NCBI GenBank assembly: GCA_944391565.1
Contig: CALXUB010000028.1
Coordinates: 30,738-94,737, forward strand
Length of the DNA stretch: 64,000 bases
Direction: 5' to 3'
DNA from: an uncultured Alphaproteobacteria bacterium
GTDB taxonomy: Bacteria > Pseudomonadota > Alphaproteobacteria > CAAHEQ01 > UBA3637
Shown here: positions 56,361-64,000 of the stretch, one piece after another
How the letters are laid out: every line of letters starts with the position of its first letter
Numbering within the stretch: the first letter of the stretch is position 1
Notes under the pieces: model-generated
The model's database searches: none
Told to the model about the DNA's origin: nothing
The model's input: the letters and a program-made list of their open reading frames with translations, nothing else
Program-made: the position numbers and the translations under genes

Positions 56361-57713
56361 TTATTTGTTTTTCTTATTGTCTTTTGCATCCGGATCGTAG
56401 GCATACAATTCGGCAACCGTCAATTGTTTTTCATTGACTTTAATATTGTCTGCTACGAAGTCAATGACTTTTTCTTCAAAAAGCGGCGCACGCAGGGTAT
56501 CCAAAGCGCGTTCGTTTTTGGCATAGAAGTCAAAGACTTTTTGTTCTTGTCCCGGATAACGGCGAGCTTCAGCCATGATTGCCTTTGTTAAATCATCCTG
56601 TGACAGGGTGATTTTGTTCAAGTTTGCAATTTCGGCAAGCAGCAAGCCGAGTTTAACCCGACGTTCCGCAATACCTTTATATTCTTTTTTCAGATCTTCT
56701 TCTTTGGCGTTTTTCTCATCTTCATCCAGTTCGCCGCGGGCTTTAGCCGCTTCATACTGTTTCCAGATAGCGTCAAATTCCATATCGACCATGCTTTGCG
56801 GCGCTTCAAAATCGCACAAAGGAGCTAACGCATCCAAAATAGCGCGTTTCAAATGAATATGAGAGACATTCGCATATTCTTTAGCAAGCTCGTCTTTCAC
56901 CAATTCTTTTAATGCATCCAATGTATCTTTTCCGAATAACTTGGCAAAGTCATCGTTCATTTCAACATCTTTGACTTTACGCAATTCTTTGATATCTACA
57001 TCAAACAGAGCTTGTTTGCCTGCCAGTTCTTTAACATGATAATTGGCCGGAAAAGCAACGTTGACAAGGGTTTTTTCTCCGATTTTCTTGCCTGTCAGCT
57101 GATCTTCGAAACCTGGGATAAAGGTGTTGGAACCCAGTTCCAGGTAATAATCCTTGCCTTTTCCGCCTTTGAATTCTTTTCCGTCAATGGAGCCCACGAA
57201 GTCGATCACGATAATATCGCCGGTTTTTGTCGGGCGGTCTTCGTTTAAAACCTCTGTTTCGCGGCGGCTTTGAGCCAAACGTTTTAAGGCTTCGTCAATT
57301 TCTTTTTGGGTCACTTCAGCCGTTAATTTTTGGACTTCTACTTTTGTTAAGTCGACCGGTTTGATTTCCGGTAAAACTTCGGCTTCCACCGTGAATTCGA
57401 AATCTTTTCCGTCTTCAAAAGCGCCAATGTCCACTTTCGGTGTGTTGGCTGCTTTTAACTTATTTTCTTCAAAAGCCTGGCGAGAGCCTTGTTGAACCAA
57501 AGCTTCGGCGGCTTCGCCTTTTACGGCTTGACCATATTTTTGTTCAACGACATTCATCGGAACTTTGCCCGGACGGAACCCGGGAAGTTTGACTTTTGTC
57601 GCAATGTCTTGAAGCCTTTTTTGGACTTCAGCTTCGAATTCATCGGCGGGAACGACAACTTTAAATGTGTGTGTCAATCCTTTTTTATTTGTTTCAGTAA
57701 TTTTCATAGACAT
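56361..57713 (-). CDS. tig: Trigger factor
   Basis: 450 aa; family blocks. Confidence 0.9.
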   Translation of the reverse strand: MSMKITETNKKGLTHTFKVVVPADEFEAEVQKRLQDIATKVKLPGFRPGKVPMNVVEQKYGQAVKGEAAEALVQQGSRQAFEENKLKAANTPKVDIGAFEDGKDFEFTVEAEVLPEIKPVDLTKVEVQKLTAEVTQKEIDEALKRLAQSRRETEVLNEDRPTKTGDIIVIDFVGSIDGKEFKGGKGKDYYLELGSNTFIPGFEDQLTGKKIGEKTLVNVAFPANYHVKELAGKQALFDVDIKELRKVKDVEMNDDFAKLFGKDTLDALKELVKDELAKEYANVSHIHLKRAILDALAPLCDFEAPQSMVDMEFDAIWKQYEAAKARGELDEDEKNAKEEDLKKEYKGIAERRVKLGLLLAEIANLNKITLSQDDLTKAIMAEARRYPGQEQKVFDFYAKNERALDTLRAPLFEEKVIDFVADNIKVNEKQLTVAELYAYDPDAKDNKKNK

Positions 57714-57829: not shown

Positions 57830-57975
57830 AAAACTCGGGACAGACAATCATAAAACAAATTGCAAAATAGACGAAAAGTCACGTTTTTGCAACTCTTTTT
57901 TACGCTTGAGGCTCATCTTGTCACAAAAAAAACGGAAAATCAAGCAGATTTCTTCATAAAAAAGGAACAAAGCAT

Positions 57976-58066
57976 GAAAAAAGGGAAAGCATAACTTTCC
58001 CTTCTCATTTTGTGGAATAATCCTTATTAACGGAAAGACCACACTCTTTTATCTGCTATAAAAGAT
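57976..58066 (-). ncRNA. Predicted tracrRNA: anti-repeat, AAUAAGG / AAAUGAGAA region and intrinsic terminator (GGGAAAGUUAUGCUUUCCC-U6)
   Basis: The + strand at 58027-58062 is 27/36 identical to the crRNA-sense repeat, so the minus strand pairs with it; minus-strand terminator hairpin at 58001-57983 plus T6; candidate -10 TATAAT on the minus strand at 58075-58070. Confidence 0.6.
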
Positions 58067-58137
58067 ACAATTATATTGCAATATTATCTAAACTCTGTCA
58101 ATATATTTTTTATTCTAATATGAAAAAAGAGGTCACT

Positions 58138-61100
58138 ATGAGCTATACGTTAGGATTGGACTTAGGAAATACATCTATCGGATGGGTACTTTTAAAAACA
58201 AACGATGCGGAAATAACGGGAATTGAAGCCATGGGCGTCCGTATTTTCCCGGATGGTCGTGAAGCTCAGTCTAAAGAGCCTTTAGCTGTCGCACGCAGGA
58301 TGGCCCGTTCGATGCGCCGTTCTTTGGACAGACGTCTGCTGCGTCAGGAAAAACTGATGCGCTTTTTGATTGAGAACGGCCTTTACCCTGCAAATGAAGC
58401 AGATAGTAAGAAATTGGTTCAATTAAATCCCTATGCCTGTCGTGATAAAGCTTCCCGTGAAGAAGTTAATCCTTTTGAAGTGGGGCGAGCATTATACCAT
58501 ATTTGTCTTCGTCGCGGTTTTCTCAGCAACAGAAAAACAGACAAAAAAGACAAAGAAAGCGGCAGCATGAAAACAGCCATTCATGTATTGGAAGAAAAAA
58601 TAGCTCAATCAGGAGCGCAAACGCTGGGGCAATATCTGTATTTGCTTCAGCTTCAGGATGATCATGCGCAGCTGCGTGTCAGTGCGCAGACGGCGGGAAC
58701 AAAAAACGTATACAATTTCTATCCCTCTCGAGCCATGTATGAGCGGGAGGTTGATCAAATTTTAATGCATCAATCATATTTGTCGGCGGCCCAGAAAAAT
58801 GAAATAAAAGAAATTATTTTCTATCAACGGCCCTTGAAAAAGCCTCAAGTTGGCTTTTGCACTTTAGAAGAAAAAGAACGTCGGGCGCCCAAATCCAGTA
58901 TTTTGTTTCAATATTTCAGGTTGTTGCAAAAACTGAATGATTTAGAATATGTTTTCTTGGATACAGGGGAATGTTTAACAGATGAAAACCGTCAAGTTAT
59001 TAAAGAAATGCTGTTGAAATCAAAAGAAGTTTCTTTTGAAACGATTCGTAAAAAATTAGGCGTTTCGTATCGTTTTTCGCATGAAGACGAAAAAACATCC
59101 AAACTGACGGGACATGAAATCAATGCGAAAATGAGTTCTAAAAAGGCTTTCGGATCTGCTTGGTTTGAACTGTCCGGACGGGAACAAGAACACCTTGTCA
59201 TGCTTTTGTCCAATCTGGAGAAAGAAGATGTTCTTGAAAAATATTTAAAACAGACTTATCCGGATTTAAGCGATGAGCAAGTCGAATATCTGCTAGGACT
59301 TTCTTTTCCAGAAGGATATGGCCATTTAAGTCGACGAGCAATGTTAAAAATAATTCCGTTTATGGAAAAAGGCTTATCTTATTATGATGCTTGTGAAGCG
59401 GCCGGTTATCACGAAACGGAACAGCCGCACGGAGAGCTGTTGCCTTATTATGGGGAGATTTTGTATAAAAAATTATTGGGCGGAAGTTTTAATCCATCCG
59501 ATCAAAATACACCGGAGCTTTATTATGGAAAAATTAATAATCCGACAGTTCATATCGGTCTGAACCAACTTCGTTTGCTTGTCAATGAACTAATAGCCCA
59601 ATATGGGAAGCCGACACAAATTGTGGTAGAACTGGCGCGTGAATTAAAGATGTCTCAAAAAGACTTGAATGAACTGAATCGAAGACAAACGGCCGATAGA
59701 AAGGAAAACGAGAAAATCAATCTTTTTCTGAAAGAACAAGGATTGCCTGAAAGCTATGAAAATCGAATGCGGTATAAATTGTGGACGGATTTGGCTGAAA
59801 ATCCCTTGGAGCGCTGTTGTCCTTTCTGCGGTCGCACAATCGGTGAAGGGGATATTTTCTCGCCGGCTTTTGAAACAGAACATTTACTGCCATTTTCTCG
59901 TTCATTTAATGACGGACGGAATAATAAGGTTTTAGCTTGTAAGGAATGCAATAACTTTAAGAAAAACCAAACACCTTGGGAGGCATTTCATACTCATGTG
60001 GGAGATAAATATGATTGGGAAAATATCTTGGCCCGCGTTTCAAAAATGAATAACAGAAAAGCATGGCATTTTACGAAAGAAGCTGCCGAAAGTTTGGATG
60101 AAAACACGGTCTTAAATCGTTTTTTGAATGATACAAAGTATTTGTCCAAAATGGCAAAAGCTTATTTGGAATATATTTGTCCGGTTCGAACAATTCCGGG
60201 ACAATTAACCTCTAAAATGCGCAAGATTTGGCAATTTAATGACTTGATCGGCGAAACGGATGAAAAAGATCGCACGGAGCATCGACATCATGCGATTGAT
60301 GCCTTAACGGTGGCATGCACGACACGCAGTACACTACAGGCTTTTTCAACACATTCAAAAGAAAGCTATGAACGACAGCATAAAATTTTGGCCGGCAGTT
60401 TAGTTCCTTTTAAGGCTTTTAATCGGGCAGAAATGAAACAACTTTTGGAAAATATGGTGATTTCCTATAAACCTAATCATAAAGATGCTCAAAAAGCTGT
60501 TTCCCAAGGCAAAACGGCAGGGGCTTTGCATGATGAAACAAACTACGGAAAAGTGATGCATTTAAACGATGACGGTTCTGTTGAAAGCCGCTATGTGGTT
60601 CGAAAGCCGCTAATCAGTTTAATTGAAGATAAAAATATTGAAGAAATCGGTGATCGAAAAATCCGTCATGAACTGCAGACATTGCTTGCCGGCAAAAGTA
60701 AAGAGGAACGTAAAAAATTATTGGAGGCCTACAGCGAGGAAAAGAATATCAGAACGGTTCGCGTCCATATCATTAAAAAAGATGATGCTATGATCGGCAT
60801 TTGTCGGAAGGGACAGGAAAAACCCTATCGTTATGTCGCCAGCGGTAATAATTATTGTATGGATATTTATTGTCCGAATCGAGGGAAAAATAAAGGGGTT
60901 TGGTGTGGAGAAGTCATCTCTAATTATGAGGCTCATCAAAAAGGTTTCCAGCCTCAGTGGCGGCAAAAAGAGCCGGAGGCAAAACTGATTATGCGTCTGT
61001 TTATCGACGATATGGTCGCATATGAGGAAAACGGACAAACGGAAATCCGACGCGTGAAAAAAATGGATAAAAGTGTTAAAGTTTATCTGCGTTCTCATTT

Positions 61101-61227
61101 GATAGCAGCAGAAGAAGCAGATAAATTATCTTGGGCAGCTTCTCCGCGACAGCTTCAGTTAAAAAATGCCCGGAAAATAAAAGTTGATGTTTTGGGACGG
61201 GTTTTTGACCCGAAAAGTTCCAAATGA
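58138..61227 (+). CDS. cas9: Cas9, type II-C, about 1029 aa (ORF track begins at 58120; the ATG at 58138 has an AAGAGG RBS)
   Basis: RuvC-I LGLDLGNTSIGW; Arg-rich bridge helix RRMARSMRRSLDRRLLRQ; HNH ETEHLLPFSRSFNDGRNNKVLACKECNNFKKNQTP; RuvC-III HHAIDAL. Confidence 0.92.
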   Translation: MSYTLGLDLGNTSIGWVLLKTNDAEITGIEAMGVRIFPDGREAQSKEPLAVARRMARSMRRSLDRRLLRQEKLMRFLIENGLYPANEADSKKLVQLNPYACRDKASREEVNPFEVGRALYHICLRRGFLSNRKTDKKDKESGSMKTAIHVLEEKIAQSGAQTLGQYLYLLQLQDDHAQLRVSAQTAGTKNVYNFYPSRAMYEREVDQILMHQSYLSAAQKNEIKEIIFYQRPLKKPQVGFCTLEEKERRAPKSSILFQYFRLLQKLNDLEYVFLDTGECLTDENRQVIKEMLLKSKEVSFETIRKKLGVSYRFSHEDEKTSKLTGHEINAKMSSKKAFGSAWFELSGREQEHLVMLLSNLEKEDVLEKYLKQTYPDLSDEQVEYLLGLSFPEGYGHLSRRAMLKIIPFMEKGLSYYDACEAAGYHETEQPHGELLPYYGEILYKKLLGGSFNPSDQNTPELYYGKINNPTVHIGLNQLRLLVNELIAQYGKPTQIVVELARELKMSQKDLNELNRRQTADRKENEKINLFLKEQGLPESYENRMRYKLWTDLAENPLERCCPFCGRTIGEGDIFSPAFETEHLLPFSRSFNDGRNNKVLACKECNNFKKNQTPWEAFHTHVGDKYDWENILARVSKMNNRKAWHFTKEAAESLDENTVLNRFLNDTKYLSKMAKAYLEYICPVRTIPGQLTSKMRKIWQFNDLIGETDEKDRTEHRHHAIDALTVACTTRSTLQAFSTHSKESYERQHKILAGSLVPFKAFNRAEMKQLLENMVISYKPNHKDAQKAVSQGKTAGALHDETNYGKVMHLNDDGSVESRYVVRKPLISLIEDKNIEEIGDRKIRHELQTLLAGKSKEERKKLLEAYSEEKNIRTVRVHIIKKDDAMIGICRKGQEKPYRYVASGNNYCMDIYCPNRGKNKGVWCGEVISNYEAHQKGFQPQWRQKEPEAKLIMRLFIDDMVAYEENGQTEIRRVKKMDKSVKVYLRSHLIAAEEADKLSWAASPRQLQLKNARKIKVDVLGRVFDPKSSK

Positions 61228-62150
61228 CCGGACAGATTTTGGAAATAGCAACAGATAATAAGCATTTGTCCGCCAAAGACGGATTTATCGTCATTTCGGA
61301 AGGACAGGTCGAGTTGGGCCGTATTCCGATTGACGCCGTTGAAGCCGTAGTTGTTTCTGCGCATGGCATCACTTACAGTCATTCTTTTTTGGTGCGCTTG
61401 TCAGAGAATAACATTCCGTTTGTGGCTTGCAATCAAAAGCACTTTCCCGTTTCTTATCTGCTTCCTTTAGAGGGACATTATAAGCAAGGCTCTGTGATGG
61501 ATGCTCAGCTTCAAGCAAATCTACCGCTTAATAAAAGGTTGTGGCGAGACTTAGTGAAAGCAAAAATTGCTATGCAAATCAGCGTTTTAACACATTATCA
61601 GAAGCCTGTGCAACGTTTAGAGTATTTATTGAAATCCGTCAAATCGGATGATAGTGAAAATGCAGAAGGTCAGGCAGCCCGTTTTTACTTTCAAGCATTG
61701 TTCGGAGACAATTTTATACGCGATCGTGAGGCGGATGGTATCAATGCCATGCTCAATTACGGATATACGGTTCTGAGGGCCTTTATCGCGCGTTATTCGA
61801 CGGCTGCCGGTTTGCATCCGACAATGGGGATTCATCATCGGAACGCTTTGAACGGATTTCGCTTAGCCGACGATTTGATGGAACCTTTTCGGCCGATTGT
61901 TGACTTTGCTGTTTATGAGATGATAACAAAGGGAGAAACGGCACTGACTTCAACCGTGAAGCAAAGCTTGGTTAATGTATTTTCAGGAAATATACCCGCT
62001 TTTTTGGGACAAACTCAAATAACAATCTGTATGCAGAATCTGTGTATTTCTTTGGCTAAAGTATATTTAAAAGAACGGGAGGAACTTGATTTGCCATATT
62101 CACCGCAACCATGGGATTGGGAGGCTTTAAATGCCTTCATCGCCGTATAA
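61224..62150 (+). CDS. cas1: Cas1
   Basis: 308 aa; overlaps the cas9 stop (ATGA); position. Confidence 0.85.
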   Translation: MTGQILEIATDNKHLSAKDGFIVISEGQVELGRIPIDAVEAVVVSAHGITYSHSFLVRLSENNIPFVACNQKHFPVSYLLPLEGHYKQGSVMDAQLQANLPLNKRLWRDLVKAKIAMQISVLTHYQKPVQRLEYLLKSVKSDDSENAEGQAARFYFQALFGDNFIRDREADGINAMLNYGYTVLRAFIARYSTAAGLHPTMGIHHRNALNGFRLADDLMEPFRPIVDFAVYEMITKGETALTSTVKQSLVNVFSGNIPAFLGQTQITICMQNLCISLAKVYLKEREELDLPYSPQPWDWEALNAFIAV

Positions 62151-62460
62151 TCAAATGTGGATGATGGTTATGTTTGATTTGCCGGTCGGAACGGCAAAAG
62201 AGCGTAAAAAAGCCACGGCTTTTCGAAAGGGACTCTTGGATCTTGGCTTCGAAATGTCACAATTTTCAGTTTATGTACGTTTTTGCGGCGACAGGCAGAA
62301 AACAGAACCTTATGTTCGAAAAATTAAGACGTTAATTCCGGAAAATGGGAGCGTCACGTTATTATTTTTTACGGATCGACAATTCTCCGATATTATTAAC
62401 TTTTCGAATCGAAAACGTAAAAAATTAAAGGAAAATCCGGCTCAGTTATCTCTGTTCTAG
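62131..62460 (+). CDS. cas2: Cas2
   Basis: 109 aa; overlaps cas1; MWMMVMFDLP start typical of Cas2. Confidence 0.85.
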   Translation: MPSSPYNQMWMMVMFDLPVGTAKERKKATAFRKGLLDLGFEMSQFSVYVRFCGDRQKTEPYVRKIKTLIPENGSVTLLFFTDRQFSDIINFSNRKRKKLKENPAQLSLF

Positions 62461-62468
62461 AGAGCTTT

Positions 62469-62497
62469 TGGGAGGATATTTTCTTATATCCTCCTTT
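62469..62497 (+). terminator. Rho-independent terminator after cas2 (GGGAGGATAT-TTTCTT-ATATCCTCC-TTTT)
   Basis: Read directly. Confidence 0.65.
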
Positions 62498-62521
62498 TAA
62501 AACAACGACTTAACTCAGTGA

Positions 62522-63020
62522 GATTATAGCAGATTAAAGAGTATGGTCAAGCCGTAACAATTCGTTGTCTACATAATTTTTTACTTCTATTATAGCAGAT
62601 TAAAGAGTATGGTCAAGCCGTAACACTATAATTTCAAAGTATTGGGATTTTGCTATTATAGCAGATTAAAGAGTATGGTCAAGCCGTAACTTATCAATGT
62701 GTTTATTTACATCAACATTAATTATAGCAGATTAAAGAGTATGGTCAAGCCGTAACTTGTTTATCCCTGTTGTTATATAGCTTTTTATTATAGCAGATTA
62801 AAGAGTATGGTCAAGCCGTAACATCACCTAAAATAATATTGAAAGCTTTTTTATTATAGCAGATTAAAGAGTATGGTCAAGCCGTAACTTTTCAAAACCG
62901 TCAAATTCAAGCCGAGAAATTATAGCAGATTAAAGAGTATGGTCAAGCCGCAACGCAACACGCGAGATCATTGACATCGTACAGATTATAGCAGATGAAG
63001 GAATATCTTGTTGACGAAAG
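62522..63020 (-). CRISPR. CRISPR array: 36-bp repeat (+ strand ATTATAGCAGATTAAAGAGTATGGTCAAGCCGTAAC), 7 spacers of 30-31 bp, repeat 7 variant (GCCGCAAC), degenerate 8th repeat at 62985. The crRNA-sense repeat is the reverse complement and ends in an extended -10 TGCTATAAT.
   Basis: Repeat starts 62522, 62589, 62655, 62721, 62787, 62853, 62919, 62985 counted directly. Confidence 0.95.
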
Positions 63021-63040
63021 CTGATTTTTCCTGTAAAATC
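63011..63040 (+). promoter_or_regulatory. Sigma70-like promoter TTGACG-N17-TAAAAT overlapping the degenerate terminal repeat
   Basis: Read directly. Confidence 0.4.
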
Positions 63041-63059
63041 AAAGCCAAAAGAAAAAACA

Positions 63060-63326
63060 ATGAAACAAAAAACGCCAAAAACCATTTTAAAAGAATACAA
63101 AGAAGCATATAATGCCCTTTTGGATCAAGTGTTGGAGATATCGGCTTTTGTGCTTTTTTGGCCTTTCTTTTATCTCTTTATCGAAACGGATATAACGGTC
63201 TTTAAAGCATTTCTGTATTACTTTCTGTCCTCCGTTTTTTCAGCTTTTTTCATCATGAAAATAATTGAATATTTCGTTTTAAAAAATGCTCTTAAAAGTG
63301 TTTCTGGTTTAAATAAAAGACTGTAA
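63060..63326 (+). CDS. Small membrane protein (88 aa), hypothetical
   Basis: Two hydrophobic helices. Confidence 0.35.
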   Translation: MKQKTPKTILKEYKEAYNALLDQVLEISAFVLFWPFFYLFIETDITVFKAFLYYFLSSVFSAFFIMKIIEYFVLKNALKSVSGLNKRL

Positions 63327-63412
63327 ACAAGGCTTCTGTTTTATATTCTTTTTATGAAAACACTGGACTTTTAGGGCGCAATCGGTTATGAAAAGAGCAA
63401 AAGGGAAAAAAG

Positions 63413-64000
63413 ATGACTTACGATAAACAAGATATTATTACAAAAAGGCGCACTTTCGCGATTATTTCTCACCCGGATGCCGGTAAAACAACTTTGACCG
63501 AAAAGCTGTTGTTGTTCGGTGGTGCGATTGCTATGGCCGGGGCTGTTAAAGCAAAGCGAGAACAACGTGCGGCGCATTCGGATTGGATGAAAGTGGAACA
63601 AGAGCGCGGTATTTCAGTGGCATCTTCTGTTATGACGTTTGATTATGCCGGTTGTACGTTTAATCTTTTGGATACGCCGGGACATGAAGACTTTTCGGAA
63701 GATACTTATCGTGTTTTAACGGCGGTCGATAGTGCGGTGATGGTGATTGACTGTGCAAAGGGGATTGAGGCTCAAACATTGAAATTGTTTGAAGTTTGTC
63801 GTCTTCGGGATATTCCGATTATTACCTTTATCAATAAATTGGACAGGGAAGGACAAGATTCGTTTGCTTTGTTGGAAGAAATCGAGCAGTCTTTGGCATT
63901 GGATGTTTGTCCGGCCAGTTGGCCTATTGGTATGGGACGTTCTTTTAAAGGCTGCTATGACTTATTGAATGATCGATTGAATTTAATTGATCGTTCTGCG
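63413..64000 (+). CDS. prfC: Peptide chain release factor 3 (N-terminal part; continues beyond the window)
   Basis: [19 protein letters not shown]1 motif and DTPGHEDF; RBS before the ATG at 63413. Confidence 0.85.

Follow-up and report, generated by a model that had tools for sequence, protein, structure and literature searches.

[quoted passage not shown]

How, and from which strand, are the crRNAs of a CRISPR locus made when each repeat of its array ends in a promoter-like motif that faces the cas genes? The question is raised by an array in a 64,000-nt stretch of alphaproteobacterial DNA (hereafter the window), for which a first-pass annotation had proposed self-promoted crRNAs read from the minus strand. 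The reading that we favor, at a probability of roughly four in five, is that of a type II-C locus whose array would be transcribed on the minus strand from a sigma-70 promoter within every repeat. The elements themselves, their conservation, a tracrRNA gene with its pairing, and the direction in which the repeats decay can be read from the sequences, and from these we infer promoter activity, the position of the start sites, and processing.

The cas operon, its surroundings, and the predicted tracrRNA

Judged by gene content and layout, the locus is a complete type II-C CRISPR-Cas9 system, with a tracrRNA gene on the minus strand, cas9-cas1-cas2 on the plus strand, and then the array. The cas9 gene (58138..61227, +) matches TIGR01865 over its full length with 622 bits; the longest open reading frame opens at 58120, and the ATG at 58138 is the likely start because homologues are 1029 aa long and AAGAGG precedes this codon. 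Close Cas9 homologues carry the Pfam domains Cas9_a, HNH_4, and RuvC_III, and in the alignment the columns D8, E498, H582, N605, H717/H718, and D721, which we take to belong to the RuvC and HNH catalytic sites, are invariant. The closest solved structures are Neisseria meningitidis (Nme)-type Cas9 proteins of 1082 aa, to which the similarity is moderate (phmmer E ~1e-56 to 1e-71). Next come cas1 (61224..62150, +), which scores 243.5 bits against TIGR03639, the type II NMENI class, above the cutoff of that model, and cas2 (62131..62460, +), with 64.9 bits against TIGR01573. On the strength of the Nme-type structure matches and of the cas1_NMENI model, respectively, Cas9 and Cas1 fall among the proteins of II-C systems. 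No fourth cas gene, csn2 and cas4 included, turned up at the locus in the ORF map or the family scan, and relatives share the three-gene cas9-cas1-cas2 layout.

On the cas9 side the locus is flanked by tig, clpP, clpX, lon, and a tRNA, and past the array lies a small ORF, beyond which stands a gene that we take to be prfC. By its Lon protease the host belongs among uncultured alphaproteobacteria, and the best named relatives of this protein are from Rhodospirillales (~70-72% identity). The two closest relatives of the locus (L003 and L004) occupy the same site, after lon-clpX-clpP-tig, and those at 51-66% Cas9 identity (L005-L009) are found in unrelated neighborhoods; two of the latter, L006 and L009, are present together in assembly GCA_965314975.1. 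These differing neighborhoods and the double presence in one assembly suggest that the locus is horizontally mobile.

The predicted tracrRNA, of ~90 nt (57977..58066, -), lies upstream of cas9 and divergent from it. Its anti-repeat (58062-58026, -) matches the repeat at 28 of 36 positions without gaps and is the sole strong repeat-like sequence that a search of the window returned outside the array. Over the whole length, the anti-repeat and the minus-strand consensus repeat are predicted to pair with -41.6 kcal/mol, against -11.3 +/- 2.9 kcal/mol for shuffled repeats, and the resulting guide duplex has a 7-bp lower stem followed by a 3-nt internal loop, which is the usual geometry of Cas9 guide RNAs. 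The sequence 3' of the anti-repeat reads AATAAGGATTATTCCACAAAAT and then forms a G+C-rich hairpin; within it we distinguish a linker (AATAAGG...CACAAAAT; 58028-58007, -) and a terminator composed of that hairpin and a run of six T (58006-57977, -), with compensatory changes in the stem at eight of nine pairs in an alignment of 12 such RNAs. Six close relatives, with Cas9 identities from 99 down to 51%, have this gene in the corresponding position and orientation, and for about 60 of the 68 loci of the wider clade the best anti-repeat again maps to the strand opposite cas9, immediately upstream of that gene.

No Rfam family reached its gathering threshold in the tracrRNA region or the array. 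A sub-threshold match to PrrB/RsmZ on the plus strand (57868-58009; 24.9 bits, gathering threshold 44; E = 0.0005, a value that holds for the 311-nt search only) ends at the hairpin shared with the tracrRNA terminator and is probably spurious, its GGA motifs, compared by eye, not being conserved in L004. A 16-nt exact match to the plus strand of the repeat, TATGGTCAAGCCGTAA, lies in the coding sequence of tig (57518-57533, -); by our estimate ~1e-3 such matches are expected by chance, and it is probably a coincidence, since synonymous differences in the sister locus L004 interrupt it.

For the promoter of the tracrRNA we infer TTGACA (58101-58096) and CAATAT (58078-58073), separated by 17 nt on the minus strand (58070..58101 as a candidate region, -), with a TATAAT at 58075-58070 (-), 20 nt from TTGACA, as an alternative candidate -10. 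The TTGAC element and its spacing are kept in L004-L009. On the plus strand an element facing cas9 consists of TTGCAA (58076-58081), 17 nt, and CAATAT (58099-58104), so that 58070-58104 holds overlapping, divergent promoter-like elements on both strands, likewise conserved in L004-L009; the overlap suggests that transcription of tracrRNA and cas9 may be coupled or in competition. The strand opposite the anti-repeat also bears a repeat-like extended -10 that points at cas9 (58054-58062, +); L004 and L005 agree with the window in having TGCTATAAA, and L006, L007, and L009 have TGCTACAAT. As a repeat-derived cas9 promoter, TGCTATAAA has been downgraded: the final T of the hexamer is lost, and few of the loci compared below keep the hexamer pattern here.

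A locus of this kind might nonetheless be inactive, its repeat promoters surviving as sequence relics while functional crRNAs are absent. Such a reading can draw on the shortness of the array, with seven spacers, and on the searches for spacer targets: the whole array gave no credible protospacer or PAM against phage records and plasmids, five spacer cores gave no credible target among IMG/VR viral contigs, and neither did the seven spacers within the 64-kb window itself. It is at odds with the full-length cas9, cas1, and cas2 genes, with their strong family scores and retained invariant Cas9 columns, with six identical repeats, with a tracrRNA whose candidate promoter and terminator are intact, and with the presence of a 99%-identical locus in another sample. 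We consider inactivity unlikely. Among the matches met in the searches, a human-gut phage contig (MT835486.1, L010; 13980-14010) resembles the 5' part of the repeat; at 21 of 23 positions, with E = 0.1, and within an apparent tRNA-synthetase-type gene that looks class I aminoacyl-tRNA-synthetase-like, the match was set aside as chance.

Promoter elements in the repeats and their conservation

The array (62523..63020) comprises eight 36-nt repeats at a period of 66, with seven 30-nt spacers between them; read on the minus strand, its oldest end is at 63020 and its newest at 62523. The consensus repeat is ATTATAGCAGATTAAAGAGTATGGTCAAGCCGTAAC on the plus strand and GTTACGGCTTGACCATACTCTTTAATCTGCTATAAT on the minus strand. 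Six of the eight copies are identical, and the only mutated ones, repeats 7 and 8, are cas-distal.

Each repeat carries promoter-like elements on its minus strand. The annotation had placed an extended -10 at this end of every copy, and TGCTATAAT is present in all eight, at the repeat boundary; this is not the whole of the promoter, as a TTGACC -35 also occurs in repeats 1-7. Repeat 1 (62523..62558, -), next to cas2, has TATAAT at 62528-62523, TG at 62531-62530, and TTGACC at 62550-62545, and points to the leader and cas2 with no spacer downstream. Repeat 2 (62589..62624, -; -10 at 62594-62589, TG at 62597-62596, -35 at 62616-62611) is predicted to drive the spacer at 62588-62559, and repeat 3 (62655..62690, -; -10 at 62660-62655, -35 at 62682-62677) that at 62654-62625. 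With the same elements as repeats 1-3, repeat 4 (62721..62756, -) would drive the spacer at 62720-62691, repeat 5 (62787..62822, -) that at 62786-62757, and repeat 6 (62853..62888, -) that at 62852-62823. Repeat 7 (62919..62954, -), predicted to drive the spacer at 62918-62889, has a single substitution, A to G at crRNA-sense position 4 (GTTGCGG...), which leaves both the promoter and the pairing with tracrRNA unaffected (duplex of -41.9 kcal/mol).

Repeat 8 (62985..63020, -) is the degenerate 'extra' copy. Its first 24 minus-strand nucleotides have decayed and its last 12, ATCTGCTATAAT, are retained, which bears out the earlier statement that the terminal repeat keeps TATAAT; with TCAACA at 18 nt from the -10, it is predicted to drive the oldest spacer (62984-62955). 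In the promoter scan repeat 8 matches 10 of 12 hexamer positions, and repeats 1-7, with TTGACC exactly 16 nt upstream of TATAAT, match 11 of 12 and have the TG besides. The eight repeat sites are the eight top promoter-like sites across the 5.9 kb scanned. On the plus strand of the repeats the same scan found no comparable recurring site, only two weak matches that depend on spacer sequence. A separate plus-strand site, TTGACG, 17 nt, and TAAAAT (63011-63039), overlaps the degenerate repeat; 3' of it is an 88-aa ORF (63060-63326, +) that has no NCBIfam match and whose sequence reads as hydrophobic.

The eight copies are one sequence repeated, and they therefore count as a single observation, so that conservation was compared across related loci. 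A contig scan with the single Cas9 protein yielded two distant loci only, and the close relatives came from contigs that encode homologues and from a metagenome scan. When metagenome contigs were scanned with a Cas9 alignment, 80 further loci were obtained, which together with the earlier ones gave 62 distinct 36-nt repeats. In all scanned loci the array lies downstream of cas2 and has one shared orientation.

Five diverged repeats can be compared, namely that of the window and those of relatives with 51-66% Cas9 identity (GTTACGGTTTGACTATACTCTTTTATCTGCTATAAT, CTTGCGGTTTGACCTTAAATTTCTATCTGCTATAAT, GTTGCAGTTTGACTGCAATTTTCTATCTGCTATAAT, and GTTGCAGTTTGACTACAATTTCCCATCTGCTATAAT). TTGAC, the 16-nt spacing, and ATCTGCTATAAT are unchanged among them, while other positions vary. 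Of the 62 repeats, numbered in crRNA sense, 61 have T31 and A32 and 58 have T36, with positions 33-35 freely variable, and 56 of the 62 end in TAnnnT. This end agrees with TATAAT at 4.2 of 6 positions on average, and the 3' end of the other strand at 2.2. In the sigma-70 -10 hexamer it is the first T, the A after it, and the last T that carry most information, and on this sequence evidence the fixed T31, A32, and T36 around a free middle are the profile of such a hexamer. The remaining elements are less widespread: TG occurs in 20 of the 62 repeats, and only 14, essentially those of the closest relatives, match the -35 at 5/6 or better, so that conservation of the -35 may be mostly inheritance.

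The anti-repeat offers an internal comparison, as it is a copy under the same pairing constraint. On its opposite strand TAnnnT is found in only 9 of 53 loci, the copy in the window being TATAAA, and for this reason the -10 pattern is maintained specifically in the repeats of the array. Such array-specific upkeep would be expected of a promoter that serves the next spacer, and RNA pairing alone does not predict it. Thus, the comparative case for selection of the repeat-end motif as a promoter is that it is kept in the repeats and not in the anti-repeat.

Direction of transcription and the cas2 side

The claim of minus-strand transcription, opposite to cas9-cas1-cas2, is supported by the orientation of the tracrRNA, by the position of the worn repeat, and by the conservation of TAnnnT; transcription of the array against the cas operon is strongly implied by the first of these, by the polarity of repeat decay, and by array-exit terminators in relatives. 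Functional crRNAs should be those of the minus strand because anti-repeat sequence transcribed from the plus strand would have no terminator and would enter cas9, and the repeat promoters are on the same strand as these tracrRNA-compatible crRNAs. As for polarity, the worn and oldest repeat is the cas-distal one, at the upstream end of the predicted direction of transcription, as published for II-C systems. Its predicted duplex with tracrRNA is confined to the 3' promoter part and falls to -19.3 kcal/mol, compared with -41.6 kcal/mol for the consensus. Read-in that would make a spacer-less crRNA from this end is unlikely, because no minus-strand promoter-like site was found by the promoter scan upstream of the array (63021-63500) and the neighboring genes are on the plus strand.

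The description of the crRNAs as antisense to the cas operon needs to be narrowed. They would indeed be made from the opposite strand, but the two transcription units are convergent and the crRNAs do not overlap the cas genes; only the promoter of repeat 1 is a candidate for RNA antisense to cas2, which it could produce.

A gap of 62 nt (62461..62522) separates cas2 from the array. It is on this leader side that II-C systems acquire spacers, and here the gap holds a hairpin (62470-62494) with a 10-bp stem, followed on the plus strand by TTTT. A terminator had been reported on this side together with the lack of an obvious leader promoter, and both descriptions hold: the hairpin is real, if modest and below the T-run rule of the scanner, and the promoter scan found no promoter-like site on the plus strand from cas2 to repeat 1. 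It is plausible that the hairpin serves as the terminator of the cas operon. L003-L009 have a hairpin at the same position of the gap, with different stem sequences. When gap terminators were defined as a hairpin followed by at least five T in eight, 27 of 63 related loci (L001-L090) had one on the crRNA-sense strand and 7 of 63 on the cas-sense strand. Many relatives thus terminate transcripts that leave the array toward cas2, which adds, if indirectly, to the case that such transcripts are made. The window is an exception among them, as the minus-strand tail of its hairpin is CAAAAGC, with no T-run, and the promoter of repeat 1 may for this reason read across the leader hairpin into cas2 as an antisense RNA.

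Could the array instead be expressed as a single long precursor, through plus-strand read-through from the cas operon or from one external promoter, with TGCTATAAT conserved for recognition by Cas1-Cas2 or Cas9? The conserved end of the repeat does adjoin the site of acquisition, and part of its conservation could serve integration by Cas1-Cas2; moreover, with a modest leader hairpin and four T on the plus strand, some read-through from cas2 is possible. Plus-strand crRNAs would, however, be unable to pair productively, whereas the anti-repeat, the linker, and the covarying terminator all suit crRNAs of the minus strand, and for an external promoter on that strand no candidate site exists at 63021-63500. 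The fixed T, A, and final T with their free middle likewise have the form of a -10 hexamer, which is not that of an inverted terminal repeat, and in related II-C systems experiments have shown this motif, identically placed, to work as a promoter. A long precursor is accordingly judged quite unlikely. That the motif is a mere accident of an AT-rich repeat is scarcely credible: TATAAT has 66 occurrences on the two strands of the window, whose GC content is 40%, but these strands, 128 kb in all, contain just five copies of TGNTATAAT outside the array, the TTGACC-16 nt combination ends exactly at the repeat-spacer junction and is unchanged in otherwise diverged repeats, and the conservation across loci already contradicts an accident.

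Proposed mechanism and comparison with known type II-C systems

Transcription from within every repeat, then, would proceed as follows. RNA polymerase would recognize TTGACC, 16 nt, and TGcTATAAT in each repeat, the -10 hexamer being the last six bases of the repeat, and would start ~5-8 nt into the following spacer, moving on the minus strand toward cas2. In this way the 5' end of each crRNA would be primary, its guide would measure ~22-25 nt, and behind the guide would come the next repeat, which would pair with the anti-repeat of the ~90-nt divergent tracrRNA to give a duplex that is loaded into Cas9. RNase III, whose gene rnc lies outside the window, may cut this duplex to produce the 3' end, and the 5' end would have no need of it. 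New spacers would be inserted at the cas2-proximal repeat. At the opposite end, repeat 8 has kept its -10, so the oldest spacer would still be expressed, and it has lost its pairing with tracrRNA, so a spacer-less crRNA could not be made.

Perhaps the repeat of this clade evolved from an extended -10 only to a complete, host-adapted sigma-70 promoter; we offer this extension tentatively and regard it as doubtful. A single 36-nt sequence would on this view be under selection twice over, for binding of RNA polymerase and for the structure of the Cas9 guide, the TTGAC of the -35 overlapping, in the predicted crRNA:tracrRNA duplex, the internal loop and the adjoining stem. To the same extension belongs an antisense RNA from repeat 1 into cas2 and cas1, which might tune expression of the spacer-acquisition genes, a transcript that relatives suppress with array-exit terminators and that the window does not. 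Alphaproteobacterial promoters lean more on a -35 of the CTTGAC type, and a near-consensus -35 within the repeat would fit that preference.

The main value of the analysis lies in annotation, as it provides the orientation of the array, a tracrRNA, and a basis for the design of single-guide RNAs for an uncharacterized compact Cas9 of 1029 aa.

The likeness to the promoter-in-repeat arrangement of N. meningitidis and Campylobacter jejuni, which the annotation had pointed out, is accurate in light of the literature. The locus shares with that of N. meningitidis a cas9-cas1-cas2 operon with no other cas genes, 36-nt repeats, 30-nt spacers, an array downstream of cas2, and, as predicted here, transcription opposite to the operon from promoters within the repeats. 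It differs in the near-consensus -35 (TTGACC at 16 nt) of its repeat; the meningococcal repeat has TGCTACAAT at its end and is not known to carry a -35, nor is the meningococcal tracrRNA known to lie upstream of and divergent from cas9. According to Zhang et al. (2013), as relayed in PMC5965381 and PMC3737331, promoters within the repeats of N. meningitidis give rise to crRNA 5' ends that are independent of RNase III. In C. jejuni an element resembling an extended -10, GGTAAAAT, closes each repeat (Dugar et al., 2013; PMC3656092); primary transcripts begin at position five of each spacer, and a single cut by RNase III with tracrRNA generates the 3' end (PMC3656092). The present locus shares with C. 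jejuni a repeat that ends in an extended -10-like element, and is set apart by the promoter type, which lacks a -35 in C. jejuni, and by the smaller size of CjCas9. The arrays of both species are transcribed opposite to the cas operon, contrary to the orientation that the rule for II-A systems would derive from repeat decay. In addition, the repeat-encoded promoter element of Flavobacterium II-C arrays has been reported as 5'-TTG-3'.

A survey of more than 650 II-C systems (Feussner et al., 2025; PMC12080349) describes a promoter of its own for each repeat and places spacer acquisition at whichever repeat is transcribed last. In the same study the first, 'extra' (oldest) repeat was mutated in 60% of arrays, mostly within its first 15 nt, weakening the pairing with tracrRNA (PMC12080349). 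The array of the window shares this form of decay, its oldest repeat being the first in the predicted direction of transcription, mutated in the part that pairs with tracrRNA, and weakened in its duplex. A further parallel comes from alphaproteobacterial and metagenomic II-C loci in which a tracrRNA precedes cas9, such as EHCas9, a metagenomic system whose array was deduced to be transcribed in the direction of the tracrRNA from promoters in its repeats (PMC10281378). Its layout is that of the present locus, with a tracrRNA that has a separate promoter and terminator (candidate elements in the window) ahead of cas9, a cas9-cas1-cas2 operon, and 36-bp repeats after cas2. Cleavage of DNA was tested for EHCas9.

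Transcription from promoters in the repeats, opposite to the cas operon, is thus already established for type II-C systems, and the sole distinguishing detail of the locus described here is the near-consensus -35. Type II-C biology is unchanged by it; a -35 in the repeat and a cas2-facing promoter with no terminator behind it are minor variants of an arrangement that the locus appears to share with N. meningitidis and C. jejuni.
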